Assembly (NCBI GenBank): GCA_963934925.1
Contig: CAWWAN010000001.1
Location: forward strand, 1 to 25,334
From: an uncultured bacterium
GTDB lineage: Bacteria; Planctomycetota; UBA1135
Length of the DNA: 25,334 nt
Direction of reading: 5' to 3'
The notes under the pieces were generated by a model. That model did not search any database. It was given only the letters and a program-made list of their open reading frames with translations, and was not told the origin of the DNA. Both the position numbers and the translations under genes were made by a program. Of the stretch, positions 1 through 23,324 are shown in pieces. Within the stretch, counting starts at the first letter, position 1, and each line of letters opens with the position of its first letter.

Positions 1-423
1 TCCGCTTGTGGATAGCGGCAAAAATCCTATTCTAAGTTGTACGTCTTTAGCCAAGAAAGAGGCTTGCTCTGATCTCAAAGAGGCAACAGCAGGAAGCCCA
101 CGCAGGGTAACTGTATAGTGTTGGCCTGGCAGAAAGGTGGAGTCCTCTAAAGTCGGGGTAGTAGGCAAGGAACCTAATATCTGAAGCGTGTTGCCAACTA
201 TCCCAACATCGTAGCCAATAACTATCTTGCCATTAGCATCGACTATTTGTACCGCGCTACTACGAACGGGGCGCTGCAACTTCTCATCAAAAACGACGAC
301 AATGGGCTGATTAATGGCCAACAGACTGCTTTTAGCTGTCGCCATCAAATCGACATTCAAGTATGTTTGCGACTGCTCTTCAGAGCAAGATACTAACAAT
401 AACAGCAAAAAGCCTCGGGTCAT
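1..423 (-). CDS. Predicted lipoprotein with an Ig-like (Big_5-like) domain; partial, runs off the left edge; not in the ORF track
   Basis: Manual translation is open from ATG at 423 to position 1 (141 codons): MTRGFLLLLLVSC-SEEQSQTYLNVDLMATAKSSLLAINQPIVVVFDEKLQRPVRSSAVQIVDANG...LPTTPTLEDSTFLPGQHYTVTLRGLP. Lipobox LVSC. The segment NQPIVVVFD...FLPGQHYTVTL resembles NRPIDIYFD...FVPGTVGYELLL in the upstream gene. An alternative TTG start lies at 465. Confidence 0.8.
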   Translation of the reverse strand, partial: MTRGFLLLLLVSCSEEQSQTYLNVDLMATAKSSLLAINQPIVVVFDEKLQRPVRSSAVQIVDANGKIVIGYDVGIVGNTLQILGSLPTTPTLEDSTFLPGQHYTVTLRGLPAVASLRSEQASFLAKDVQLRIGFLPLSTSG

Positions 424-441
424 AATGGACCCGAGGCTTTT
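407..441 (-). terminator. Intrinsic terminator-like hairpin, symmetric and possibly bidirectional
   Basis: Perfect 14-bp inverted repeat AAAAGCCTCGGGTC (408-421) / GACCCGAGGCTTTT (428-441) with a 6-nt loop. The minus strand ends in TTTTTG. It lies 17 nt after the stop of the 459..4001 gene. Confidence 0.7.
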
Positions 442-458
442 ATTAATAGCCGTCGTTA

Positions 459-3400
459 TTACCAAGCGTAAGGGATTTTAATGTATCCGAGTGCTGGACG
501 ACTTAAGCTATTAAAGCTGCCTTGGCTCAATGCGTCGATATCAAAGCTAACGCGATAACGAATAAAGCGTTTGCCATCGAGGTCGTCAAAGGTTGTACTG
601 TTTTCGCCAGTCCAGCTAGTAATTGTTGCTGCATCAGGCTCGAGGCTTTCTTGAGACACTCCATCAGCGCCCTGGAATTGAATGCGCACAGAAGACGATG
701 GTGGTAGCTTGTCCTTGATATCGCCAGAGGAAACACCGAAGAACTTGTTGTAGATGACAAAGGCACTACCGTCGATGATCGCTCCATCCGCAACCAGCGT
801 GGCAAGGACCAAATCACCATTACTGGTTAAATCGGCGCTAACGATTTCATGCGAAGTGAGTGCGGCAGTTGTAAAGTCACAACCTATTAATAACTTAGGA
901 TTGAACTTCCAGGTATCGGCAATGATTAAGTTAGTAAGGTCAATTGTCACACTAAATCCACTTGCATCAATAGTGAAGTCGCTAGCATCGCCATCAGTAA
1001 TCGGGGTAAGTTGAATTACCGTAGCAGTCGCGACATCGCTCTCGACATAACCTAAAGCATCTAGTCCTGCAAAGTTCAAATCGCCGGTAGCACCGTAGTC
1101 GGGGAATATCCCCACTCCGTTACTCGGCTGACGCAAGTTCGCCAGACCCGTATCAATCCACACCGATTGAACCTGTGATTGCGGTGAGAAGAATGGCATT
1201 AATGTAAATGGCACAGGCATAGCGTATAGCGCCAAAACCTGATCCTGGCGGTCAGAAACCACCGGGTTACCAAGATTTTCAAGAGTTACATACTGCTTGA
1301 ACGCCGCATCAACATCGCCATGGTATGCGATGTCGGCAATCGGGTCTGGGATATGTATTTGGATCACCCCGGAAGCGCCGGCACCACCACGCCCAGCCTG
1401 GAAACTTCCATTACCATCGTAATTATTCGGTGCATTCTCACTTGCAGGGAAGTTTGCCGCCAATTTGGAAGCAGACCAACCACGACGCCCACCAATAGCT
1501 TGCATAACGTAGTTAGGAATAGTGTTAGCAAAGAAAGTGTTAGGGTTGCTCGGAACACCGGGTACGCCGACGTTAATGGCACTTAAGTTAAGACCCGAAG
1601 CAGAGCTTAGAATCAAGTGTCCGCCTGAGCCACCGCCTGAGCCTGAGACCTGAGTTGTAGAACCATCTAGGCTACCACCTGAGGTAGAATCGCCACCAGC
1701 CCCGTTACCACCGTTCACCTTAAGCACTGCGGAGCTGCCGAGAATGATATGGCCAATCACGTGAATTTGTATTTGACCACCGCCGCCCCCACCTCCAGCA
1801 CCACGGAAGTAGCGCTGCGTATTGCCGTGAGGGAAAGCTGTGTCTGGGTAATGTAATGACAATGGCAAAGGTTGGTCGAGGCCGTCGTTAATGTAACGAA
1901 GGAGTGTTTGAAGGTCACCTGACCCACCGCCACCTGAACCTGCATACGGAGCCAGTAACTCGCCGGTAACAGTAGCAGGGCTCGCCCCAGTACCATCCCA
2001 GAAGAAACGTTCACCATAAAAATCGTTAGCTGTGCCGAACTCTGGATCGACTGAAGAAAAGACTGAGACACCACCACGCCCTCCATCTGGCCCGGAAACA
2101 GCTAAACCGTACCTTTCATCGTTGTTAATTGAACCACCGGTTTGAGCGGGGTCGAAGATTATGGTATCGAGAGCTCCGAGGTCTTGACCGTTATCAAGAT
2201 AGCCGCGAACAGCCTGTGGGAACGGCGCGGTGTCTATCTGGCTTGCACCAACAGACGATCCGCGCATTCCATCTTCGGCACCCATGAAATAAGTGTCGGG
2301 GTCTATTGTGTTATCGAAAATAGTGTGACGATCACCGCGCAGGTCAGGGCCGGAGTTGTCGTGGCTACTGGGCAAACTGCTTGATGGCCATTCGTCCCAG
2401 AAAACGGCGTCGGTTCGTGTTAGAGCAAAGCCACCCCCTCCACCACCACCGGCGACAAGGGATTCTGCGCCGATCAAGACTACACCGCCAGGGAAAATCG
2501 CCGCAGGCGATCGATCTTGTTGGTAACCACCTTCACCACCACTACCACCACCAAAGGCCGAGCCAAAAGGGCCGAAGCCATTTTCGCCCAACTGTGTACT
2601 GTAGTCGGTTGTAGTAGACGCATCGCCACCTTTCCCACCACCACAAGCACCTTCAGCGCCAAGAACCACTACATCGGGACGAGAGGTAAGGCCATCCGCG
2701 GCGTTGGCATCGTAACCACTCGCATCGACTTCTCCGTTAATTGTGGCGTCACCAGCGACATAAATGATTAGTGGATTATCGCCAAAAGCACGGATTGATG
2801 CTCCTGCATCAATAGTGAAATCATTGGTGTACATCACACCATCTACGACCGTGAACGTGTTCCCTAAGTCATCCGTTTGCTCGTCGGTTCCCGTTGTATT
2901 TATCTCAATATGTGAGTTTGTAAGGCGGAAATCTATTTTATCGCTACCATCGTTGTCTGGGAAGATGAACGCTGCCACGATCTCACCTTGATTAATTTCG
3001 GCGAGTGGCTGCGGCAAGCTAGCTAAGTAATCGAGTCCTGTTCCTACGGAGAAATCATCTATGAATTGGTCATAGGTAACATCATCTGGAACGACCGATG
3101 TGTCATTGTAAATATCAGCGAGGCTGCCTAACTCAACAATTGGTGAAACATCGCCACTGCTATTCTGATCACCGCCCAAATCTTCGAAGTCCGATGTCGT
3201 AACGACACGCACACTTCGCCCAGGAAGAAGCACACCACTTACCTGGAACAACAATTCTGCAGAATCGCCACAGTTATTGACCACGACCCATTCGCCTGGA
3301 ACTATTTGAGGAAGTGCAGGGAACTGGCCATCACTTAGAGAGTACTCAATGTATATCCGATCCGTTTGAAAATTTATAGGCGAGGGACCGACACCTTGAT

Positions 3401-4001
3401 CAAAGGTAACTTCAAAAGCAGCGCTCTCCATCGAGAGTAAACCCAATCCTGCAGGAACCTGAACATTCGTGATTTGCGGTGGAGTGAATAACGGGTCGTA
3501 AAAGTATGTCTCGCCCAACGCAGGCGTCACAAATCTACGAGTCAGTCCAGAAGAAAGGGGATGGCCTGCGACATCGCGAACCACGGTATATCCACCAGAA
3601 CTTTCTGTTGGAAGTAACAGTTCGTAGCCAACCGTGCCTGGCACAAAACCACCGTTGTCAAGCGCGAGGTTGTTTGGACACGCCGGAGTAAAGCGTATCG
3701 CGTGATCGGCACGTCCCTGAACATCAGAAATCAGCTCGTAAGTTCCTGTAACAGGAACTCCGAGATTAATAGTGTCAGTAGCCCGAAAGATAACCGAGCT
3801 AGTGCTTACCGAATTAAAATCAATAGCGCTATCAAAATAGATATCAATTGGGCGGTTAAGCAGCCATGTGTCACCATCGATGACAGTTGTATCCAACGCC
3901 ACAAAAGATGTTGACTCGGAAGAGGCCTCAGATTTGCATCCTGGGAGAAACGCCATCAAAGACGCCCCTAGGAGCACTGTTATTTGTAATTTGATTTTCA
4001 T
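459..4001 (-). CDS. 1180-aa predicted lipoprotein: N-terminal Ig-like domains, central glycine-rich domain, shared C-terminal beta-rich domain; function unknown
   Basis: Signal peptide with lipobox LPGC (Cys22). Big_5-like motif NRPIDIYFDSAIDFNSV and a second one, FEVTFDQGV...DFEDLGG. About ten polyGly tracts. C-terminus RFIRYRVSF...RPALGYIKIPYAW. Confidence 0.85.
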   Translation of the reverse strand: MKIKLQITVLLGASLMAFLPGCKSEASSESTSFVALDTTVIDGDTWLLNRPIDIYFDSAIDFNSVSTSSVIFRATDTINLGVPVTGTYELISDVQGRADHAIRFTPACPNNLALDNGGFVPGTVGYELLLPTESSGGYTVVRDVAGHPLSSGLTRRFVTPALGETYFYDPLFTPPQITNVQVPAGLGLLSMESAAFEVTFDQGVGPSPINFQTDRIYIEYSLSDGQFPALPQIVPGEWVVVNNCGDSAELLFQVSGVLLPGRSVRVVTTSDFEDLGGDQNSSGDVSPIVELGSLADIYNDTSVVPDDVTYDQFIDDFSVGTGLDYLASLPQPLAEINQGEIVAAFIFPDNDGSDKIDFRLTNSHIEINTTGTDEQTDDLGNTFTVVDGVMYTNDFTIDAGASIRAFGDNPLIIYVAGDATINGEVDASGYDANAADGLTSRPDVVVLGAEGACGGGKGGDASTTTDYSTQLGENGFGPFGSAFGGGSGGEGGYQQDRSPAAIFPGGVVLIGAESLVAGGGGGGGFALTRTDAVFWDEWPSSSLPSSHDNSGPDLRGDRHTIFDNTIDPDTYFMGAEDGMRGSSVGASQIDTAPFPQAVRGYLDNGQDLGALDTIIFDPAQTGGSINNDERYGLAVSGPDGGRGGVSVFSSVDPEFGTANDFYGERFFWDGTGASPATVTGELLAPYAGSGGGGSGDLQTLLRYINDGLDQPLPLSLHYPDTAFPHGNTQRYFRGAGGGGGGGQIQIHVIGHIILGSSAVLKVNGGNGAGGDSTSGGSLDGSTTQVSGSGGGSGGHLILSSASGLNLSAINVGVPGVPSNPNTFFANTIPNYVMQAIGGRRGWSASKLAANFPASENAPNNYDGNGSFQAGRGGAGASGVIQIHIPDPIADIAYHGDVDAAFKQYVTLENLGNPVVSDRQDQVLALYAMPVPFTLMPFFSPQSQVQSVWIDTGLANLRQPSNGVGIFPDYGATGDLNFAGLDALGYVESDVATATVIQLTPITDGDASDFTIDASGFSVTIDLTNLIIADTWKFNPKLLIGCDFTTAALTSHEIVSADLTSNGDLVLATLVADGAIIDGSAFVIYNKFFGVSSGDIKDKLPPSSSVRIQFQGADGVSQESLEPDAATITSWTGENSTTFDDLDGKRFIRYRVSFDIDALSQGSFNSLSRPALGYIKIPYAW

Positions 4002-4017
4002 CTTAATTAGTTACTAA

Positions 4018-7000
4018 TTAATTTGTGGTGTAAGCGAAACCGAAGGCATCCATCTCAGCCTCGAGATTGAGTTGAGTATTTGCGATGAATGTAAATCGCA
4101 GCTGGAAATACGGGTACTGCAGCGAGACTAAGCTGGCGGGGTCTGAAACCCAGTCAGAACCAGCTGTTACTGTGGCGCAACCAATGTCATCGTCATATTC
4201 CCCGTAGGCATCAAACGCATTAGATGCATCTTCAAGAGGCGTCGTTTCATCAATGCAGTTAACAACATTAATCGCCGGAGAGGTGCGAAATTCAACCTCG
4301 ACAGACGTTCCAGGGTTAGATTGCTGCGGTGTTGGCTCTAGAGTTAAGTTAGAGAACCAATCGAGAGCACCGCCGGCGTTGAACCAGTGAGTATAAACAT
4401 TGCTCACCTTCGTTACAAAATCAACTTGGCCCCAATGGAGTTCTGGACCATATGCCTTAATTGAACCACGTGGAGTTGGACCACTACCGGCACCATCCGC
4501 ATCGGGAACAACGAAGTCCCAGTTACTACCGGTTAAGCCGCCCCATGAGAACACACGGAAAGCTGGCAATGCAGAAGAGCCTACCATTATCTGCACCTGC
4601 GAACCGTTAAAGCCGAATTCGGCGCCTACCACATAACAACGATAGCGCATCAACAAAGGCAAACCAATTGTTGGGATCAAAGACTTCTCATAAGTACGGT
4701 CTTCGTTTACGACCCGAGGAGGACATCCCCAGCCACGATTATCGACTGACGTTCCGCTGGCGTTATTACCGCCCGCCAGAGTATTGCCATCCGGCAGCGG
4801 CAGTGAGGTGTCGCGGTAAGTGAAGGTTTGAGAAAAATCGGGCCATGGATACATGGCCACGCCACCATTGGCTAGATACACATTTGCCTGAGAAATTGAG
4901 TATTGAGGAACGTCAAAGACAATCGTTTCATCGAGCTCTGCATGAGCTACGGGGTCTTCGCCGAAGCCATAAATGTTTTGGTCGAACAAGTTGCTAGACA
5001 AGCGCTTTAAACCAGAGTTGTTGTAGGCTGGATATCCGGAAGCAGGGTCAATCCAGTCATCAGGAAGCCGGCCAGAGTGTGCCAGCGCGATGGAGTAACG
5101 ATCGAAGGTCGTATCGTAAACGATGCCCTGAAACGGCGACCAACTCATGCCCTCGACGTCGAGGTTATATTCTTGATTATTGCTTAACCCAAAACCTAAG
5201 TGGTGGTACCCATAGAGAGTGTGCAGTACGGCCCCCGCAGGCACAAGTGGCGTCATGATACCGGATGTGAACGATATTCTTTGCCCAACGTAAGTATTCG
5301 TTTTGTCTGCCTGACGCGAGAATCGGTTTACAGCACGGCCGCGGAGCACCCCGTCACCGTTGTACTGCCCCAACTGCCCACCGTATTCAGGACTTTGGTC
5401 GTTATCTTCGTCAACTCCATTACCACGCAGTGCAAAATATTTGATGTTAGCAGCAACGCCACCAACAGTAAGCTTGTCGGTCACCGCACTTTGCCCTGAG
5501 TGACCGGCGACAAAGCCAGAGAATCCAACTGGGTTACCAGCAAGATCAAGAACCCCTGTCGTGCCCGCCCGAATCGCCAATGAAATTTGCGCATCGACGC
5601 CTTCACCAAAAGCATCTGTAATGCCAGCCAGAGGGGCCAAAGTATAAGTGCGTGCATCGCCAGAAGACTGTACCGGCCCAAACATGATGCGTCCCGAACC
5701 GCCACCAACTCCAAAGCCTGGCAATCGGTCGAGATAGTCCGCAACCGTTTCCTCGCCAGGCACCCATTCAGCATCAGGTTCAATTGGATCTAAGGGATTT
5801 ACTGCCACCATATTTGATGTAGCTAAAACCATGGAGTCCAAAGAGCGCACGGTCTTACTGTCCATTGCTTCGCTGAACATAACGCTAATCGTTGCCGCTG
5901 GGTCAACACCCGTTGCCGGCAAAACTGCTGGTTCCGGTGTGAAGCTAAGAAAACACAATTGGTAATCTGAATCTTGGCTTGAGTATGCCGTAGTAAGAAC
6001 CGCCCCTAGATTGGAACTTGTTGCAGGTAAGTCACCCGAGATTAGAGTGCCACGAGCTATGTATGCTGTCGGGTCGCTGGAATCAACAATAGCTGTGATT
6101 TGCACGAAAGCATTTTGTAGCTGACCATCGACGCTTAGGTCAAAGACATCGCCCGCTTTAGGAAGAATACCTTGGCATCCCAATGCATTGTTCGAGTATG
6201 TCAGAATTCGCTGAGTTGCGCCTAATTCGACAACTGATGAAACGGTTACGCGCTGTTCGGAGATTAGTTTCGGCAAAACAACGTCTTTAAGAAAACCGTT
6301 ATAGTCGTCAGCACTGTTACCCGAGCGAATAACGCGAATAGATACAGGATCGATACCGATGAATTCGTGCGGCTCAATAATAGTGTCCCCTGATTCATTC
6401 AGAGAAAGACTAAAGTCTTGAGTCAGAGATTTGTTCCTCAACACCATGGTTTGGTTAGCAAAGACATTAACGACAGACGGAATATAGATTTTCAAATTAG
6501 GTGTTTCCGTATCAGTCGACTCTGGTAGCCCGATACCGTTTACCGTCAGCCCTGAAGCAGAGTTACTCGAATCGATTTCAGAGATAGTCGGGTCAATGAT
6601 AATGACTCCAACAGGGTTACCAGTAAGATCAAACTCGTCTTTCACAACGTACTTCACCTCGAGGTTATCGAAGCCCTCGATGCTAGAACCTGCCAAGACA
6701 CGAACGGTTTGACGGTTAACCGTCTCTGGGGCAACATGCTCAGTGAATTCTAGGCGAATGGCAGCGTTGCGCGGCACCTTAACGAATGGCCCCTGAGACT
6801 CAGTCCCCAGTTCTTTTAACGTCGGCAAATTACTTGTTGCCGCATCAAGAGCATTTTCGAAATCACCCGTGCCAGAATTCGGCACGTGCAAAATAGTCAG
6901 AATCTCTTTTTGAGATATAGGATTAATAAAGAAATCGTAATCTTCGCCATCAGCAGTGATATTTTCACGAATAACAATATCGACATCATACAAGAGGCCA

Positions 7001-7203
7001 TTGGCATCAAAGACATCGACCAAGCGCCCCCACTTCGCATCGGCTAACTTTAAGTCAGAGTTACCGAACCTAGGGCCACTAGAGCCCCCCGAATCGTCGT
7101 AGAAGTTTCCGTTTATCGTAGGCGGGCCACAAGCAGCGATCGCCATCGACATAGCCACTGTCAGGCAGAGTAGTGATGTTTTTTTCTGAGCTGATTTAAC
7201 CAT
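4018..7203 (-). CDS. 1061-aa predicted lipoprotein with Ig-like segments; paralogue of 7203..10439; function unknown
   Basis: ATG at 7203 overlaps the upstream stop (TAATG) and is preferred to the track's GTG at 7215. Lipobox IAAC (Cys25). Ig-like motifs RNAAIRLEFTEHVAPETV and ISVMFSEAMDSKTV...DLAGN. Confidence 0.85.
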   Translation of the reverse strand: MVKSAQKKTSLLCLTVAMSMAIAACGPPTINGNFYDDSGGSSGPRFGNSDLKLADAKWGRLVDVFDANGLLYDVDIVIRENITADGEDYDFFINPISQKEILTILHVPNSGTGDFENALDAATSNLPTLKELGTESQGPFVKVPRNAAIRLEFTEHVAPETVNRQTVRVLAGSSIEGFDNLEVKYVVKDEFDLTGNPVGVIIIDPTISEIDSSNSASGLTVNGIGLPESTDTETPNLKIYIPSVVNVFANQTMVLRNKSLTQDFSLSLNESGDTIIEPHEFIGIDPVSIRVIRSGNSADDYNGFLKDVVLPKLISEQRVTVSSVVELGATQRILTYSNNALGCQGILPKAGDVFDLSVDGQLQNAFVQITAIVDSSDPTAYIARGTLISGDLPATSSNLGAVLTTAYSSQDSDYQLCFLSFTPEPAVLPATGVDPAATISVMFSEAMDSKTVRSLDSMVLATSNMVAVNPLDPIEPDAEWVPGEETVADYLDRLPGFGVGGGSGRIMFGPVQSSGDARTYTLAPLAGITDAFGEGVDAQISLAIRAGTTGVLDLAGNPVGFSGFVAGHSGQSAVTDKLTVGGVAANIKYFALRGNGVDEDNDQSPEYGGQLGQYNGDGVLRGRAVNRFSRQADKTNTYVGQRISFTSGIMTPLVPAGAVLHTLYGYHHLGFGLSNNQEYNLDVEGMSWSPFQGIVYDTTFDRYSIALAHSGRLPDDWIDPASGYPAYNNSGLKRLSSNLFDQNIYGFGEDPVAHAELDETIVFDVPQYSISQANVYLANGGVAMYPWPDFSQTFTYRDTSLPLPDGNTLAGGNNASGTSVDNRGWGCPPRVVNEDRTYEKSLIPTIGLPLLMRYRCYVVGAEFGFNGSQVQIMVGSSALPAFRVFSWGGLTGSNWDFVVPDADGAGSGPTPRGSIKAYGPELHWGQVDFVTKVSNVYTHWFNAGGALDWFSNLTLEPTPQQSNPGTSVEVEFRTSPAINVVNCIDETTPLEDASNAFDAYGEYDDDIGCATVTAGSDWVSDPASLVSLQYPYFQLRFTFIANTQLNLEAEMDAFGFAYTTN

Positions 7204-10200
7204 TAATTTGTCCACGCAATTCCTAGGCCGTCAAGGGTTGGGCGCAAACCAGAATCTGGGTCTGCCATAAAGGAAACTCTAATCTGGACAAATCCGTAAC
7301 CACGGCCTTCCAGGTCGGTAATGTCTGTCGTCCAAGCAGATGGCGTTGCAACCGCGCCCGTACCGCCGACGAAATCGCCATAGTGGTCAAACGGGCTGTC
7401 ACCCTGATTAGTATCGCCTAGCTTGACGCTCGCGTCATTCAAAGGAGTGCTGTTCTCCAATGGGTTTGCATTCGCAGATACTGCCTGCGAGCCACGATAC
7501 TCGATGACCAACGAAGTGCCTAGTGGCTGCTTATCGGCTGCTGGCTCGACGACCACCCCGTCAATAGTGCCTATGTTCAAAGGGCCACTAATCGCAAACC
7601 AGTGACTATGCATACGCGACACCTCCAAAGAGAAATCCGCCGCTGCCCAGTACAACAAGTCATCACCCGCTGCTGCAGTCGCGCCACCTGGAAAGGGGAG
7701 CCACCCACCAACTGGGGCACTGCCAGACGTTCCAGCCTGGTCAGGCTGCACTCGCTGCCAATCACCAGATACGTTCTGGCCGCCAGAAGAATAAACCCGA
7801 AACATTGGAAGATTAAGCGGCGTAGTACCAGGCGTCATCATTAATGATGTCGTAAGCGAGTTAAGGCTTAGGGAATCCATTTGCGGATAAGTTCGAAAGC
7901 GCAACTGCAGCGGCAAAGCAACGGTTGGGATAAATCCTGGAAGATAGCGCTTGCCTAGCGGGTCCCATAGACCAAGAGTGTTCACGTAGTTATCAGTGGG
8001 CGCACCGCCGCCGTTGCCGTCTACCCCCCCAAGATAAGCCTGATCGAATGACGTATCGCGCCATACGAACTTCTCTGAAAAGCTAGTCCACGGCAGGTAC
8101 TCGATGCCATTCCACTGGTACTTATTGATGCCGCGAGCGAAATATGACGAGCTAAAGACCATCTTTTCGTCGATACCACTAGTACCGTCGGCCGTGAACC
8201 CCAGCACATTATCATTAAACGAAGAAGTTAGCATGCCCGATTGAGGGTAGGCTGGCGCATTTGTTCCCGGAGGTATATAGAGCTCATCCGGCATCGAAAA
8301 GGAGTGCGAAAGTGCTAACGAAATTTTATCGTAATTCTCATCAAAAACTACGCCGCCAAGCGGCGCCCAACTCATCCCCTCAACCGTGTAATTAAATTCG
8401 GAGGCCTCTTCATACCCAAAGCCGAAATCTTCAGGGCGATAAACATTCATCACCACCGCGCCCGCAAAGTTCAGTGGCTCGGAAGTCAGCCGGCCATTGG
8501 GGTGCCCCCCGACGGGATGCGCAGAAATCGCGAACTGTGTGTTGTCTGCTGACACCGTAAGCCTAGAAGGAACACGGCCCGTCAGCTGGCCAGAAAAGTC
8601 AAAGGAGTTGACCTGCCCCGCCCATTCAACATTACCATCACCATCTTCGTCAAGACCGACGCAAAGAAGTGAGAAATATTTTGTGTTTGTCGCCGCCTGG
8701 TGATCAATCTCAAGCTGAAAAGACTGATCGTTATTGCCCGCGACAAAAGACGAGAGCAGCACATTGTTACCCGACAGGTCCTTGATACCGTCTAGGCCAT
8801 CACGCAAGGCAACAACATAATTATCAAAAGTGTCGTTAGGATCTAAGTCTTGCCAACCTGCAACTGGCGTAATAGTAAAGGCGCGATTGCTCTCCGAGGC
8901 CACGACCTCTCCAAACAGGACGCGACCACCGTATTCTGCTTCTGCCGTTGCATTACCAGTGATATCGGCTCGGTAGTCATAACCACGTTGTCGCTCGATA
9001 AAACCTGAGACGGACTCGGAAGTGTCAATTTGGCGATACCACGCGGCTTGCGACTCTTTTACATCTTGCGGGTCAGGATTCAGATTGTCGTCTGGCTGAA
9101 TAATAACAAAGCTGCTCATCGAGCGCACAGTGGTATCATCGACTGCCTCGTCAAAGCGCACCGACACCGAAGCTGTATCGAGAATGCTGCCCTCGCCCGG
9201 GTCGGGAACTATGTCGAGGTAGCAGGCCTGGATATCACTATCAGCCGCTGAGTAGCGAGTTGACACCTGACCAGCCAAGGCCGTAGCGTCGAAAAGAGCA
9301 CCGTCATAATTGCTGTCAACACAATGCACAATGTATTCTGGAGGAGAGATGTCCTCGCGCGAGACCACTGTCCAGATGTTGTTCTTATTGTTACTATCCA
9401 CCACCTCTATGACATCCCCTACTTTGGGAGTCAAGGAAGCGCATCGCGCAGAGTCCACCGAGTAATTCACAACAATATCCGAGCCATCGCCCGAGTGACT
9501 ATCAATCGTAATCCCCTGAGTGCCTAGTAAACTTGGGCGAATGGCGTCACGCATAAACCCGCGGAAAGTGTCGAGAGCATTGCCTGTACGCATAGCCGCC
9601 AACAACTTGTAGCTATCGATACCAATGATTTGAACGGGCTCAGAGGCGTCCTTCCTACCCGGAGTATAGAATATTGATTGACCTTCATCGAGAGTGGACA
9701 GCACACTATACACTCCGTTAACTATGTCTATTTCAGTTGGAATGTAAACAACCAGATTGTAATCGTCGACATCTGTCGACTCACCGAAGCCAATCACGTT
9801 AGCCGGCAATTGTTCTTCGGCCGCTTCTATCTGAGATATTGTCGGGTCTATCAAGATACCGCCACGATGGCTAGTGTTCGTCGAGCTATCATTTTTCACG
9901 ACAAAACGTGAAGAAAACTGCAGCATGCCACTCGGGCTGGAAGGATTGCCTTGAAAAACCTGCACGGACGAAGAGTCAACCGAAGACGGGTTGATAGGCA
10001 AATTGAAATTCAATCGCACTGCTGCATTACGAGCCACCATATCGTAAGTTAATTCGCCGACAACATCGCGGCGAAGAACCGTTTGCAGATTATCTTTGTA
10101 GTCAAAAAGAAGTGCTTCGAATTCAGCAGATGCTTCTGGGAACTGAATAAGCAGTGACTCTTTCTGAGTGACTGCATTTGCTGTCAAAGAAACGATTGAC

Positions 10201-10439
10201 GATCCTGTAATCAAATGATCTACAAGCGCATCTTCTTCGACAAGAGTTCCGTCGACATCATAGACATCAACGATGCGCCCCCACTCGATGGATTCCAAGA
10301 AAAGCCCCTTTGCATCGGTAGCTGCTTGATCGGCAGAACTAGGGTCCGCAACCGAAATACATGAGGCCACGAGCAAAGTACACAGAATTGCTAGCTGTGA
10401 AAACGGGATGGAACTAAGTGATCTAGAGGTGTTTGCCAA
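7203..10439 (-). CDS. 1078-aa predicted lipoprotein with Ig-like segments; first gene of the putative sigma54 operon; function unknown
   Basis: TTG start with an in-frame TAA eight codons upstream. Lipobox VASC (Cys27). Motifs RNAAVRLNFNLPINPSSV and VSVRFDEAVDDTTV...DLSGN are colinear with the downstream paralogue. Confidence 0.85.
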   Translation of the reverse strand: MANTSRSLSSIPFSQLAILCTLLVASCISVADPSSADQAATDAKGLFLESIEWGRIVDVYDVDGTLVEEDALVDHLITGSSIVSLTANAVTQKESLLIQFPEASAEFEALLFDYKDNLQTVLRRDVVGELTYDMVARNAAVRLNFNLPINPSSVDSSSVQVFQGNPSSPSGMLQFSSRFVVKNDSSTNTSHRGGILIDPTISQIEAAEEQLPANVIGFGESTDVDDYNLVVYIPTEIDIVNGVYSVLSTLDEGQSIFYTPGRKDASEPVQIIGIDSYKLLAAMRTGNALDTFRGFMRDAIRPSLLGTQGITIDSHSGDGSDIVVNYSVDSARCASLTPKVGDVIEVVDSNNKNNIWTVVSREDISPPEYIVHCVDSNYDGALFDATALAGQVSTRYSAADSDIQACYLDIVPDPGEGSILDTASVSVRFDEAVDDTTVRSMSSFVIIQPDDNLNPDPQDVKESQAAWYRQIDTSESVSGFIERQRGYDYRADITGNATAEAEYGGRVLFGEVVASESNRAFTITPVAGWQDLDPNDTFDNYVVALRDGLDGIKDLSGNNVLLSSFVAGNNDQSFQLEIDHQAATNTKYFSLLCVGLDEDGDGNVEWAGQVNSFDFSGQLTGRVPSRLTVSADNTQFAISAHPVGGHPNGRLTSEPLNFAGAVVMNVYRPEDFGFGYEEASEFNYTVEGMSWAPLGGVVFDENYDKISLALSHSFSMPDELYIPPGTNAPAYPQSGMLTSSFNDNVLGFTADGTSGIDEKMVFSSSYFARGINKYQWNGIEYLPWTSFSEKFVWRDTSFDQAYLGGVDGNGGGAPTDNYVNTLGLWDPLGKRYLPGFIPTVALPLQLRFRTYPQMDSLSLNSLTTSLMMTPGTTPLNLPMFRVYSSGGQNVSGDWQRVQPDQAGTSGSAPVGGWLPFPGGATAAAGDDLLYWAAADFSLEVSRMHSHWFAISGPLNIGTIDGVVVEPAADKQPLGTSLVIEYRGSQAVSANANPLENSTPLNDASVKLGDTNQGDSPFDHYGDFVGGTGAVATPSAWTTDITDLEGRGYGFVQIRVSFMADPDSGLRPTLDGLGIAWTN

Positions 10440-10573
10440 GTGTTTATGCTGGTTTACAAGTTAAACTTGATTATCGAAAGACCTTTTGCCCACAAAGGGT
10501 TACGGGTCAATACAATCGGATGTGTATCCTAATATCGCGGAGCCTAAATTCGGGTCGAGAATTACCTTAAATA

Positions 10574-10590
10574 TGCAAATTTCATGCCAA
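10574..10590 (-). promoter_or_regulatory. Sigma54 (RpoN) -24/-12 promoter
   Basis: The minus strand reads TTGGCATG-AAAT-TTGCA, matching YTGGCACG-N4-TTGCW at 12 of 13 specified positions with exact GG-N10-GC spacing. It is intergenic and points at the lipoprotein genes. Predicted +1 near 10563. Confidence 0.8.
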
Positions 10591-10637
10591 CTTCCTATCG
10601 CGGAAGATCTTGTTTCCATGCAATCTCAGCGCATTAG

Positions 10638-10653
10638 TGTGCGATATCGCACA
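10638..10653. promoter_or_regulatory. Perfect 16-bp palindrome; candidate enhancer (UAS) for a sigma54 activator
   Basis: TGTGCGATATCGCACA = TGT-N10-ACA, about -75 to -90 from the predicted sigma54 start. No U-tract follows it. Confidence 0.55.
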
Positions 10654-10657
10654 GCCC

Positions 10658-11977
10658 TTAATTGCCCCAATTGAAACCGCACGCTTCGGCATCGGAGCGT
10701 TGGGCGAAGGGGTGCATGTTCTCAGGGCTAATGCGCTGCGCTGCCGGAGAATGCTGGGCGTGGAATTTTCGCGTCGAAGAGCAGCCAATATAATCAACAA
10801 CTAGCTGAGAATCGCACAAAGAACAGAGGAAAACCCTACGTGAACGGCCAAAAATGCGCCACGGGAAAGCCACGCCTTCGTGGCGACTCACACAGTTCTC
10901 GTTTGGGCATTCCTTTAAGCTATGCACCGTATTGCCCGCCGAAAGAGAGCGCAGCGGCAATAAGGAATAATCTTGCCCTGCCAAAGCCGCCAAAAACACT
11001 GCCTGACGAACAATCGGCCCATTTGCCGCCTGCTCAAAGTAAACAGCGCGCCGATCACCGTCTATTGAGGTCGGGAGCTCGTCACGCCGTGGCAGAGGAT
11101 GCAAAAACAAGCAGTTCTCGAGGAGTTTATTCTCAATAATCTCTGAATGAATACCTGGGAACACCCCACCAGCAGGCATTGCCCCGCGCTCGACCTGCAA
11201 TCGGGTCAGATACAGCGCATCTAAATCTTCGAGTTTCAAAACGTCGGTGCCAAACAAATCTTTTTGCACCAATCCGCGCGGCTCAATAATGCGCGCCTCG
11301 GAGTTACCCGTCCAGTCAGAAAATAGCGGATGCGAGACCCATCGCAATCGATAGTCAAAGTAGTCAACAATACGCTGCTCGAAGCTGGGAGCCCAGTCAA
11401 GACCGGGCCCAGGTAACAGCACAATTTTCACGCCGAGCATAGCCAGCGACCATGCTAAAGAACGCACGGTACGGCCATTGGTCAAATCGCCAAGCAAAGC
11501 CACCGTCTTGCCTTGAAACTTTCCATCCCATTTTTTGTGGAGGGTGTAGAGGTCGACCAACGTTTGGGTTGGATGCCCCAATCGCCCATCACCACCGTTT
11601 ATCAGTGGTATCTCAGAATAACGCGAGGCATAGCGTGATGCGCCGTCATACGGATGACGTAGCACCATCAAGTCGGCATAGCTGCTGACAACGCGTGTCA
11701 TGTCGGCTAAAGATTCGCCTTTAGCGCCCGATGTAGATTTCGAATCGCTAACGGAAATGACGCTCGCGCCCAAACGGTGCGCAGCAGATTCGAAGGAAAG
11801 CCTAGTGCGCGTTGACGGTTCGTTAAAAACAGTGGCGATCACCTTACCGTTTAATGCCTGCGAATACTTTGACGGCTGGGCCTCGATGTCTGCAGCGCAT
11901 GCAAACAGAGACTCTAGAAATGTCGGGCTTAGTGCTTCCGAAGAATGAAGCCCGTCGATGGTCGGCAAAATACTCAC
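10658..11977 (-). CDS. pyrB: Aspartate carbamoyltransferase catalytic chain with a fused PyrI-like zinc domain and a further small C-terminal domain
   Basis: ATCase motifs FNEPSTRTRLSFE, KGESL, HPTQTLVDL, GDLTNGRTVRSL, YLTRLQVER, HPLPR. C-terminal CPNENC...CSLC. GTG start. Confidence 0.93.
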   Translation of the reverse strand: MSILPTIDGLHSSEALSPTFLESLFACAADIEAQPSKYSQALNGKVIATVFNEPSTRTRLSFESAAHRLGASVISVSDSKSTSGAKGESLADMTRVVSSYADLMVLRHPYDGASRYASRYSEIPLINGGDGRLGHPTQTLVDLYTLHKKWDGKFQGKTVALLGDLTNGRTVRSLAWSLAMLGVKIVLLPGPGLDWAPSFEQRIVDYFDYRLRWVSHPLFSDWTGNSEARIIEPRGLVQKDLFGTDVLKLEDLDALYLTRLQVERGAMPAGGVFPGIHSEIIENKLLENCLFLHPLPRRDELPTSIDGDRRAVYFEQAANGPIVRQAVFLAALAGQDYSLLPLRSLSAGNTVHSLKECPNENCVSRHEGVAFPWRIFGRSRRVFLCSLCDSQLVVDYIGCSSTRKFHAQHSPAAQRISPENMHPFAQRSDAEACGFNWGN

Positions 11978-18213: not shown

Positions 18214-18675
18214 TTACGCTTCAGCTAATTCCGACAGCAAGTCAATAACTTGCGCAGAATCAGAAGCCTGACACGCGAAAGACACGAAATCTTCGTGCTT
18301 GGCAAGCGAAGCAACCCAGCGCAACAAATCGAGATGATCTTCAGCACCATCGGCAGGACGCAAAATTGAGAAGAACACATGGACGTCTTCGGCGTCTAGC
18401 GCATTAAAGTCGATGCCGTCTTGATGAATAGCAATTACGACGGAAACGTCGTCGAGGCCATCAAGCTTAACATGTGGGATACCAACGCCAGAAGCGCCTG
18501 TAGATCCTTCAGCTTCGCGTGACCGTAGAGTCTCGAGAATCTCGTCTTTGCGCTCAGCCAAAGAGGGAGTGCTAGCAATATGCGCATCAGTCAAACTGGC
18601 TAATGCTGAATCTGAATCAAATGCCTCTAAGTTGAGGACAATGCTTTCAGGCTTAAAGAGTTCTACGAAGTTCAT
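18214..18675 (-). CDS. ptsN: PTS EIIA component (Ntr/fructose-mannitol family)
   Basis: REAEGSTG...VGIPH motif; position between hpf and HPr. Confidence 0.8.
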   Translation of the reverse strand: MNFVELFKPESIVLNLEAFDSDSALASLTDAHIASTPSLAERKDEILETLRSREAEGSTGASGVGIPHVKLDGLDDVSVVIAIHQDGIDFNALDAEDVHVFFSILRPADGAEDHLDLLRWVASLAKHEDFVSFACQASDSAQVIDLLSELAEA

Positions 18676-19040
18676 GCTTGGTCGTTATTGGTATCAGAAG
18701 GCGCATTAGGGTCAATTGATGCGCGGTACAAAGTTTCTTCGTGGCGACGAGACTTTGCGGAATGCTTTTCTTTGTACTTGATGATCTGAACCTTCGCTTT
18801 GTCGACCACATTATCGATTGCCGTGCGGGCATCAGCACAAGAATCTTTTGCGACAAAAGGCTTGCCACTATGGCGATGCAGAATCAATTCACAAGTCGTC
18901 TCACCATGTTCGACATCAAAGACTATTTCGCCAGATTCGAAGTGCTCTCCAAAACGCTCAAGACTTAGCACATGCACAGCAGTATGGTCTTGGAGGCTTT
19001 TAGGGAAGTCGCTATGGCGACAGGTGATGGAGATTTTCAT
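18672..19040 (-). CDS. hpf: Ribosome hibernation factor HPF/RaiA family
   Basis: MKISITCRH...AID..VDK...QI.KYKEK pattern; position directly before EIIA. Confidence 0.85.
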   Translation of the reverse strand: MKISITCRHSDFPKSLQDHTAVHVLSLERFGEHFESGEIVFDVEHGETTCELILHRHSGKPFVAKDSCADARTAIDNVVDKAKVQIIKYKEKHSAKSRRHEETLYRASIDPNAPSDTNNDQA

Positions 19041-22420: not shown

Positions 22421-22541
22421 CTAGAAACCGGAGACCCGAACATTCGCGGCACCCGATGAATGATGCTTAGAGCTGCTCCATTCCTGGCCTGACCCGGTTC
22501 ACTTCAGCATCGCTGCGCGAGGCCGAGCCCCCGGCTTCTAG
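22421..22541 (-). ncRNA. ffs: Signal recognition particle RNA (small bacterial type)
   Basis: Conserved core GTGAACCGGGTCAGGCCAGGAATGGAGCAGC. The ends CTAGAAGCCGGGGGCTCG and CGGGTCTCCGGTTTCTAG can form an 18-bp closing stem including G-U pairs. Typical position upstream of dnaX. Mature ends are approximate. Confidence 0.88.
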
Positions 22542-22562: not shown

Positions 22563-22650
<88 letters not shown>

Positions 22651-22663
22651 ATTATGGCGCAAA

Positions 22664-22692
22664 AGGATAGCGTTGCGCACGGTTTTAGTGAT
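22664..22692 (-). promoter_or_regulatory. Candidate sigma70-type promoter for tRNA-Ser/ffs
   Basis: ATCACT (weak -35), 17-nt spacer, TATCCT, then TTTGCGCC. It shares a 16/19-nt segment, in the same register, with the tRNA-Arg promoter. Confidence 0.5.
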
Positions 22693-23186
22693 TACTTTTT
22701 CCGTTTAGCTTGAAAAAACTCGCGCAACATTATGGCAGATTGCTCAGCCATCAATCCACCGTCATACTCTACGCTGTGGTTCAGCCCTGGCAAGTCGAAC
22801 AACTGCGCCAACGACTCTACACCACCGAACTTAGGGTCGCTCGCCGCATAAACCACCCGCCCAATACGAGCATGCATGATTGCCCCACAACACTGAATAC
22901 ATGGCTCTAGAGTGCAGTACAACTCGGCATCAACCAAGCGTTTATCACCCGTGGACGCCATCGCCTGAGTAATAGCAAGCATTTCGGCATGTGCAGTAGC
23001 ATCAGCCAGCGCTTCTACTTGATTTGCGCCGCGTCCGAGTATTCGGTTACCTCGCACAATGATGGCTCCAACAGGCACTTCGTCCTTGCGAGCGGCAGCC
23101 TCGGCTTGCTTGAAAGCGAGCTCCATTATCATGGAATCACGCTCTTGTGGTGATTCTGGCTGACGTAAAGGAAACAGCAGAGTCAT
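22692..23186 (-). CDS. tadA: tRNA adenosine(34) deaminase
   Basis: EVPVGAIIV, HAE, TLEPCIQCCGA, DPKFG. Start moved to the ATG at 23186 because the track ORF runs through the tRNA-Arg gene. Confidence 0.95.
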   Translation of the reverse strand: MTLLFPLRQPESPQERDSMIMELAFKQAEAAARKDEVPVGAIIVRGNRILGRGANQVEALADATAHAEMLAITQAMASTGDKRLVDAELYCTLEPCIQCCGAIMHARIGRVVYAASDPKFGGVESLAQLFDLPGLNHSVEYDGGLMAEQSAIMLREFFQAKRKK

Positions 23187-23208
23187 TGGCCATGTGACGA
23201 AAATAAAA

Positions 23209-23285
23209 TGGTGCGCCCGGGAGGATTCGAACCCCCAACCTCCTGATCCGTAGTCAGGTGCTCTATCCAGTTGAGCTACGGGCGC
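23209..23285 (-). tRNA. tRNA-Arg (ACG), CCA encoded
   Basis: GCGCCCGTAGCTCAACTGGATAGAGC; anticodon arm CCTGA-CTACGGA-TCAGG; GGTTCGAATCC; ends CGGGCGCACCA; 77 nt. Confidence 0.97.
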
Positions 23286-23295
23286 TTGGGCGGAA

Positions 23296-23324
23296 ATTAC
23301 AACGTTGCGCACTAATTTAGTCAA
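23296..23324 (-). promoter_or_regulatory. Sigma70-type promoter for tRNA-Arg/tadA
   Basis: TTGACT (23324-23319), 17-nt spacer, TGTAAT (23301-23296), then a GC-rich discriminator TTCCGCCC. An AT-rich tract lies upstream of the -35. Confidence 0.7.

Follow-up and report, generated by a model that had tools for sequence, protein, structure and literature searches.

The giant lipoprotein locus

The DNA stretch analysed in this work (the window, 25,334 nucleotides) is the entire contig C1 of a metagenome-assembled genome (MAG) of an uncultured planctomycete, which comprises 1.49 Mb and is 75% complete. One end of the window carries four lipoprotein genes, here called A, B, C and D, all encoded on the minus strand and preceded by a sigma-54 type promoter with an enhancer-like palindrome. 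Genes A, B and C most likely constitute one sigma-54 transcription unit, and this unit appears to be one locus of a regulon of giant lipoproteins in a mostly marine family of uncultured Planctomycetota.

Gene A (7203-10439, minus) has a TTG start codon and encodes a 1078 amino acid protein, the signal peptide of which ends in LLVAS followed by the lipobox Cys. Gene B (minus) may be read from a GTG (4018-7215, 1065 amino acids) or from the ATG at 7203 (1061 amino acids), with MAIAA before the Cys, and its product is a full-length paralogue of A (32% identity, E 1e-137). Gene C (459-4001, minus) encodes a Gly-rich protein of 1180 amino acids with FLPG before the Cys, and gene D (1-423, minus; LLVS before the Cys) is open for 141 amino acids up to the window edge. 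The A stop codon and the B ATG have one base in common (TAATG), and the intergenic gaps are 16 nt between B and C and 35 nt between C and D. The assembly breaks within gene D: window positions 1-69 overlap with positions 6982-7050 of contig C89 (69 nt), there being 2 mismatches near the C89 end, and the gene carries on into that contig (locus L004, 6634-7050). The joined gene encodes 256 amino acids, while the D orthologues in relatives have 264-275. The initial annotation, made from the sequence alone, had described four co-oriented genes of 1078, 1061, 1180 and at least 141 amino acids with these three junctions and with lipobox signal peptides reading VASC, IAAC, LPGC and LVSC; gene sizes and junctions agree with the coordinates, and all four predicted lipoboxes are seen.

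The N-termini of A to D have the same build, i.e. a short charged stretch, a hydrophobic segment and a Cys after a small residue. All 43 A/B homologues keep the lipobox Cys, as do 50 of the 52 homologues of C; the other two are truncated. In both groups the residue before the Cys is always Gly, Ala or Ser. The genes for lipoprotein maturation are found on contigs C95 (lgt; LGT, E 7.5e-54) and C66 (lspA; Peptidase_A8, E 6.4e-27). The giant lipoproteins are acidic, with isoelectric points (pI) of 4.1-4.5, rich in Ser and Thr and poor in Cys.

A sigma-54 promoter with an upstream palindrome

The gap upstream of gene A contains the -24/-12 element TGGCATGAAATTTGCA (10574-10589, minus) of the form TGGCAT-N5-TTGCA, which has the canonical spacing of the GG at -24 and the GC at -12 and is the sole exact match to TGGCAYN5TTGCW in the window. 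The transcription start predicted from the -12 GC would be at ~10563 (minus). The palindrome GTGCGATATCGCAC (10639-10652, minus), a candidate upstream activating sequence, lies 63 nt upstream of the -24 TGG, and adjoining it is a second imperfect dyad, ATGCGCTGAGATTGCAT (10618-10634, minus), which may be the site for a second activator dimer.

Taken alone, a single exact match of this kind is weak evidence, and versions of the motif with one mismatch are no commoner in the window than in shuffled sequences (4 versus 2.5 expected), as would be found if the match were fortuitous and the genes were read from a sigma-70 promoter or from the upstream gene pyrB. The comparison with relatives makes this explanation extremely improbable. 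The element TGG[CT]A[CT]-N5-TTGC is found 5' of the A homologue in 27 out of 29 loci, in relatives down to ~35% protein identity, so that it is kept at its position while the flanking DNA diverges. A second set of 34 loci, an independent collection from species-representative genomes, has the element before the A homologue in 29 cases, versus none of the 34 when the same regions are read backwards. Furthermore, no sigma-70-like site was found in the gap 10440-10657, the RNA contigs described below end between promoter and start codon, and the site is specific to the bacterial family genome-wide and tied to lipoprotein genes.

The palindrome is conserved together with the promoter. GTGCG-N4-CG[CA]AC occurs at 64-66 nt from the -24 TGG in 21 of the 34 loci amid diverged flanking DNA, and in most of 27 further loci the palindrome stands at ~63 nt from the TGG. 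Its right half-site is frequently CGAAC with no compensating change in the left half, which fits a protein binding site better than an RNA hairpin. At the position of the second dyad relatives carry GGGCG-N5-GCCC or CGCGC-N6-GCGCG, and the promoters of the 1041 amino acid lipoprotein type described below carry a repeated GTGCG half-site. In other families of the order, loci L045 (~7915) and L047 have in common the sequence CGGCACGGCGTTTG downstream of the conserved palindrome; it has a sigma-54-like -24 and a non-consensus -12 (TTTG[TA], not TTGC), at 125-165 nt from the dyad, and may, judging from these letters, represent the same promoter in diverged form.

The genome encodes a complete RpoN with AID, CBD and DBD domains (contig C86) and four proteins with a Sigma54_activat domain, three of them with HTH_8 (encoded on contigs C57, C86 and C104). 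Two of the activators are of the REC-AAA-HTH_8 type, one is FHA-GAF-AAA-HTH_8 and one consists of the AAA domain only; rpoN is divergent from the gene of an NtrC-type activator, which is one of the two REC-AAA-HTH_8 proteins. None of the four activator genes has the palindrome next to it. The hpf gene (sigma-54 modulation protein family) and ptsN (EIIA-2 of the phosphotransferase system), which as a rule are neighbours of rpoN, are located in the window (18214-19040, minus) with no rpoN beside them. Two other sigma-54-like elements were noted before chaperone genes: TGGCACAACTCTTGCG is located 47 nt upstream of dnaK on contig C57 (~2405, minus), directly downstream of a REC-AAA-HTH_8 activator gene, and TGGCATTAGTTTTGCT 56 nt upstream of groEL on contig C81 (~2993, plus). 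By sequence, chaperone expression may be sigma-54 dependent.

RNA data were available from four marine metatranscriptomes holding contigs 95-97% identical to the window. The units compared are assembler contigs, the runs were picked for holding a stretch of the window, and the strain differs by 3-5%. The upstream ends of two of these contigs (X1 record 7 and X6 record 29) are at 10549 and 10544 (minus), 14-19 nt short of the predicted start; none crosses the promoter, and positions 10550-10680 are covered by no RNA contig. Conservation in relatives, the presence of rpoN and activators and this RNA boundary together strongly support the sigma-54 promoter and the enhancer-like palindrome upstream of it as real, in line with the near-consensus promoter and palindromic enhancer-like site proposed initially.

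The organisation resembles that of NtrC-type enhancer promoters such as glnAp2 of enteric bacteria, with which it shares the GG/GC -24/-12 element, tandem upstream dyads, RpoN and AAA+ activators with a Fis-type helix-turn-helix. It differs from them in that the dyad is close to the promoter at a rigid distance and in that the regulon contains hardly any genes other than those of giant lipoproteins. The dyad itself, GTGCG-N4-CGCAC, is also different from the NtrC and NifA consensus sequences.

Extent of the transcription unit

The initial annotation placed all four genes in one operon. Its upstream part is borne out by the RNA contigs, of which two bridge the A/B junction (6950-7496 and 7064-7340) and one the B/C junction (3925-4661). 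Word depth in the RNA contigs is 5-19 for A and B, 0-5 and patchy for C, and 0-2 for pyrB and the genes upstream of it. For gene D it is 0, no contig covering this gene in the four metatranscriptomes, for which strain divergence is a possible cause.

Between C and D there is a strong, GC-rich terminator-like hairpin (408-441, minus) with a 14 bp stem including 8 GC pairs, followed by a T-run. An equally strong hairpin of other sequence follows C in four relatives (L006, L049, L050 and L045), one of which belongs to another family. Since the hairpin after C is conserved, the sigma-54 unit most likely consists of A, B and C, and transcripts would get to D only by read-through or from another promoter. 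Gene D and the two genes after it, for the prepilin peptidase and the OmpA-like lipoprotein, are thus most likely downstream of the terminator and outside the sigma-54 unit, and the four-gene operon stands for its A/B and B/C junctions only.

A sigma-54 operon of four genes, possibly extending to the prepilin peptidase and OmpA genes, would require the hairpin to act as an attenuator or an RNA-stability element. In favour of this, the 35 nt gap leaves no room for a separate promoter, the ATG start codon of D sits in the loop of the hairpin, and D is conserved at this position in relatives. The hairpin of 14 pairs with its T-run and its structural equivalents in the four relatives are nevertheless the signature of a working intrinsic terminator, and D has no metatranscriptome coverage, so we regard the longer operon as possible but doubtful.

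A family-specific regulon of giant lipoproteins

The genome contains five perfect copies of GTGCG-N4-CGCAC, four of which are upstream of sigma-54-like sites before large lipoprotein genes. One is the copy before gene A on C1. A second is found on C69 (locus L055) before the gene at 1186-4311, which encodes a lipoprotein of 1041 amino acids, and a third on C89 before a Gly-rich protein of at least 844 amino acids, which is distantly of the C type (hhalign, 96%). The fourth is on C13 before a C paralogue with 36% identity, where the gene is preceded by a sigma-54 site plus a palindrome 421 nt upstream. The 1041 amino acid lipoprotein on C69 has no Pfam match and no detectable relation to A/B, and its gene is located between ruvB and menaquinone genes; in its enhancer-promoter module the core ATGGCATGATTGTTGC is strongly conserved in relatives.

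We defined a composite pattern as the dyad, followed after 40-70 nt by the -24/-12 element. Of 42 genomes sampled from the same family, 38 contain this composite site, versus 1 of 109 genomes from the other families of the order, and the reversed control pattern occurs once. In five relatives from five genera, 13 out of 15 composite sites are directly before lipobox proteins, all 13 being orthologues of A/B, of the C paralogue or of the 1041 amino acid protein. In one relative B has an enhancer-promoter module of its own. Taking the full genome size of the MAG as ~2 Mb, at least six proteins of ~850-1200 amino acids are encoded behind sigma-54 type promoters with GTGCG-N4-CGCAC upstream, corresponding to ~1% of the coding capacity.

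The cluster had first been described with a promoter of its own. It is not a system by itself: the same enhancer-promoter design precedes other giant lipoprotein genes, and the cluster is one locus in a family-wide regulon. Membership of the A-B-C operon in a family-specific regulon of giant lipoproteins is well supported by these sequence comparisons, and the shared regulatory module before dispersed genes is a stronger argument for a common role of the proteins than their adjacency.

Domain composition and predicted folds

Pfam recognises Big_5 (PF13205) in A (31.6 bits) and B (28.7 bits) above the cut-off of 23.6, and gives no hit for C and D. The AlphaFold2 (AF2) model of A has a predicted local distance difference test score (pLDDT) of 84.9 and a predicted template-modelling score (pTM) of 0.78 and can be divided into three parts. 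The first consists of immunoglobulin (Ig)-like domains matching SbsC, CopC and macroglobulin (MG) domains with Z 8-9, and the second is a small inserted beta-barrel (residues ~307-394). The third is the C-terminal half (~585-1078), in which sandwiches of the jelly-roll or lectin-like kind resemble phage tail and baseplate proteins, carbohydrate-binding modules and N-domains of esterases, though weakly (Z 6-8). A DEDGDG motif of the DxDxDG type at residue 597 of A, inside a conserved block, may bind Ca2+, judging from its sequence.

The AF2 model of C (pLDDT 86.2, pTM 0.75) shows two N-terminal Ig-like domains (Z 10-11), a central Gly-rich beta-helix (~350-940) with Z 6-7.5 to two-partner secretion (TPS) domains, ice-binding proteins and tapirin, and a C-terminal jelly-roll with small beta domains. 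A polyglycine-II bundle is disfavoured for C, since AF2 gives a high-confidence beta-helix in the Gly-rich region. The D orthologue aligns with the first two Ig-like domains of C (hhalign, 83%). In AlphaFold DB relatives carry the automatic name 'SbsA Ig-like domain-containing protein', and hits for the central region of C include the automatic names DUF3494 and 'PE-PGRS'. Ig-like motifs, which had been noted in all four proteins, are thus found in A and B as Big_5, in C by structure and in D through its alignment to C.

The absence of a recognisable catalytic motif, also noted before, agrees with the searches with Pfam, NCBIfam, PDB-sequence profiles and folds, which gave no enzyme family or fold. 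No functional family was obtained from Pfam, NCBIfam, PDB-sequence profiles or a feature search in the ESM Atlas, and A to C have no profile match to any PDB sequence. Fold searches with the models of A and C gave matches at the domain level, with no characterised enzyme family over the full length, and whole-model Foldseek comparison with the PDB returned only Ig-like or very low TM-score matches. Both the A and the C models weakly match the same phage-tail jelly-roll chains. A C-terminal domain common to A/B and C was not confirmed by profile comparison, which aligned only the N-terminal Ig-like domain. A phage or tailocin origin was rejected, there being no phage genes nearby and the matches being at domain level only (Z 6-8).

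Matches to SbsC (Z 9-10) were obtained for the Ig-like domains in A, B and C, and those of A and B belong to the same Pfam family, Big_5, as Geobacillus SbsC/SbsA, which are likewise large and acidic. This raises the alternative that the proteins form a true two-dimensional S-layer-like lattice, i.e. a constitutive coat which replaces a classical S-layer and has a lipid in place of the S-layer homology (SLH) anchor. In structure the Ig-like domains are most similar to SbsC, an S-layer protein (Z 9.3-9.9), and this similarity, the SbsA-type names in AlphaFold DB, the acidic pI, the few Cys residues and an RNA depth above that of the neighbouring housekeeping genes all fit such a lattice. However, Ig domains of the Big_5/SbsA type are found in many proteins unrelated to S-layers, an enhancer-dependent promoter implies that expression is conditional and not constitutive, and there are several distinct large proteins with no single dominant subunit. 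SbsC/SbsA are anchored by a region binding a cell-wall polymer whereas A to C have a lipobox, the jelly-roll and beta-helix C-terminal halves are without counterpart in SbsC, and no SLH or other S-layer anchoring domain was detected by Pfam. Overall, we consider a lattice of this kind improbable.

Two other groups of surface proteins can be compared. The SusE/SusF proteins and other surface glycan-binding proteins (SGBPs) of Bacteroidota are held by a lipid at the N-terminus and carry an Ig-like spacer followed by beta-sandwich binding modules at the distal end; they are non-enzymatic and conditionally expressed. The same layout of anchor, spacer and distal module is predicted here, though no relation in sequence or specific fold was found, SusC/SusD neighbours are absent, the proteins are 3-4 times larger, and control is by sigma-54 in place of hybrid two-component systems or extracytoplasmic function (ECF) sigma factors. 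The beta-helix of C (~350-940) aligns weakly (Z 6.3-7.5) with TPS adhesins (FHA, HxuA, HpmA and EtpA) and with beta-solenoids of ice-binding or DUF3494 proteins; unlike the TPS adhesins C has a lipobox and turns rich in poly-Gly tracts. In C and its neighbours Pfam detects no TPS, haemagglutination-activity or ShlB/POTRA families, the last of which would indicate a TpsB/Omp85 partner.

Distribution and gene order in relatives

Of the 151 genomes from the order, 148 have a match to the A/B family, and within the bacterial family of this MAG the tandem A-B pair is seen in most genomes. Among 1.84 billion representative sequences 405 clusters match at E <= 1e-30, nearly all with lengths of 950-1150 amino acids. 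More than 250 homologues of C were found, with several paralogues per genome. The relatives bear the label of uncultured Planctomycetota and derive from samples of marine or other aquatic origin. The literature searched did not describe this system.

Downstream of D the same strand of C89 carries genes for a prepilin peptidase, an OmpA-family lipoprotein and a pilin-like protein (L004, 4263-6584, minus); the position after the OmpA gene is occupied by the pilin-like gene here and by an unnamed gene of 166 amino acids in one relative. Upstream of gene A are pyrB and then a long stretch of housekeeping genes. The gene order, i.e. pyrB, an A/B-type gene, a C-type gene, a D-type or second A/B-type gene, prepilin peptidase and OmpA, is kept across the order including other families, so that the co-conservation expected of the lipoprotein genes was found by the neighbourhood survey. 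Synteny across the order extends over the entire region, including the housekeeping genes. Adjacency of A/B to C in the other families does not represent independent contexts, as the Pfam assignments of the neighbours show one ancestral locus from pyrB to prepilin peptidase/OmpA.

The neighbours lead to a further alternative, in which A to C are periplasmic envelope lipoproteins residing in the cytoplasmic membrane or in the inner leaflet of the outer membrane, with a structural or scaffold role perhaps tied to a type IV filament or secretion apparatus. The presence of a lipobox does not by itself mean that a protein is exposed at the surface, and the prepilin peptidase and the OmpA-family lipoprotein, of a peptidoglycan-binding family, follow the cassette in all relatives examined, other families included. 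On the other hand, the conserved terminator parts C from these two genes, the region is a frozen syntenic block in which neighbours may be unrelated, and huge acidic Ser/Thr-rich proteins with beta-helix and jelly-roll domains are more like extracellular adhesins or coats than periplasmic scaffolds. A periplasmic location is in our view unlikely.

Other features of the window

PyrB is fused with a PyrI-type zinc domain (PyrI_C; 10658-11977, minus), and a fusion of the same kind stands at the orthologous position of L045 and L047, which belong to other families of the order. A gene for tRNA-Arg(ACG) (23209-23285, minus) falls within the 5' extension of the open reading frame (ORF) for a TadA-like tRNA adenosine deaminase (22692-23324, minus). 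The listed TTG start of this ORF is therefore probably too far upstream, and the deaminase gene would be directly downstream of the gene of its likely substrate tRNA. The signal recognition particle RNA and tRNA-Ser(GGA) (22430-22529 and 22563-22650, minus) are found upstream of dnaX in an ordinary layout.

Proposed role of the A-B-C unit

The architecture, i.e. lipid anchor, Ig-like spacers and distal jelly-roll and beta-helix modules, favours a role in surface binding or as a coat. In the mechanism proposed, an activator of the NtrC class (bacterial enhancer-binding proteins, bEBP) would bind the tandem dyad GTGCG-N4-CGCAC at its fixed distance of 64-66 nt from the -24 and drive RpoN-dependent transcription from ~120 nt before gene A. 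Genes A, B and C are most likely co-transcribed, and the conserved intrinsic terminator after C most likely limits how far D and the following genes for the prepilin peptidase and the OmpA-like lipoprotein are expressed. After Sec export and processing by Lgt and LspA each protein would be anchored via its N-terminal Cys, the membrane-proximal Ig-like domains serving as spacers, and the jelly-roll/lectin-like module of A and the beta-helix and jelly-roll of C would be held off the membrane and provide surfaces for binding or contact. Together with the other members of the regulon (the two C-type proteins and the 1041 amino acid lipoprotein) A to C may form an inducible coat for adhesion to, or capture of, particles or polymers. 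On balance we lean towards this interpretation, in which the sigma-54 A-B-C unit gives rise to an inducible, lipid-anchored adhesive or capture coat and represents one regulon locus in a mostly marine uncultured family of Planctomycetota.

A number of points weigh against it. Surface exposure, interaction among A, B, C and D and a ligand are presumed, the function being read from the architecture, and fold matches of Z 6-11 are in a range which often reflects just common beta architectures. The adjacency of the genes is inherited, and since they form one locus within a broadly syntenic region it is weak evidence of functional coupling. From the transcriptional point of view, contig word depth is a poor measure of expression in runs selected for this very stretch, and both the patchy coverage of C and the zero coverage of D could come from sequence divergence. 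Lastly, the palindrome could not be matched with any one of the four activators.

A more far-reaching version holds that the regulon specifies a previously undescribed cell-surface organelle, either a giant-lipoprotein lattice or a particle- or polymer-capture layer, in which one sigma-54 activator switches the A/B pair, the C-type beta-helix proteins and the 1041 amino acid type together via the rigidly spaced GTGCG-N4-CGCAC. We view an organelle of this kind as tentative and rather unlikely, and retain the inducible adhesive or capture coat as the working interpretation.

Metagenomes of ocean, polar, oxygen-minimum-zone and subsurface waters are the only source of data on these planctomycetes, and transcription of A and B is evident in marine metatranscriptomes. 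The A/B family to which these two proteins belong has no characterised member, no solved relative and no Pfam assignment beyond a generic Ig domain. The enhancer-promoter signature provides a handle for finding the signal and the activator and for predicting the members of the regulon in related MAGs, and it can also guide the choice of targets for structural and binding studies.

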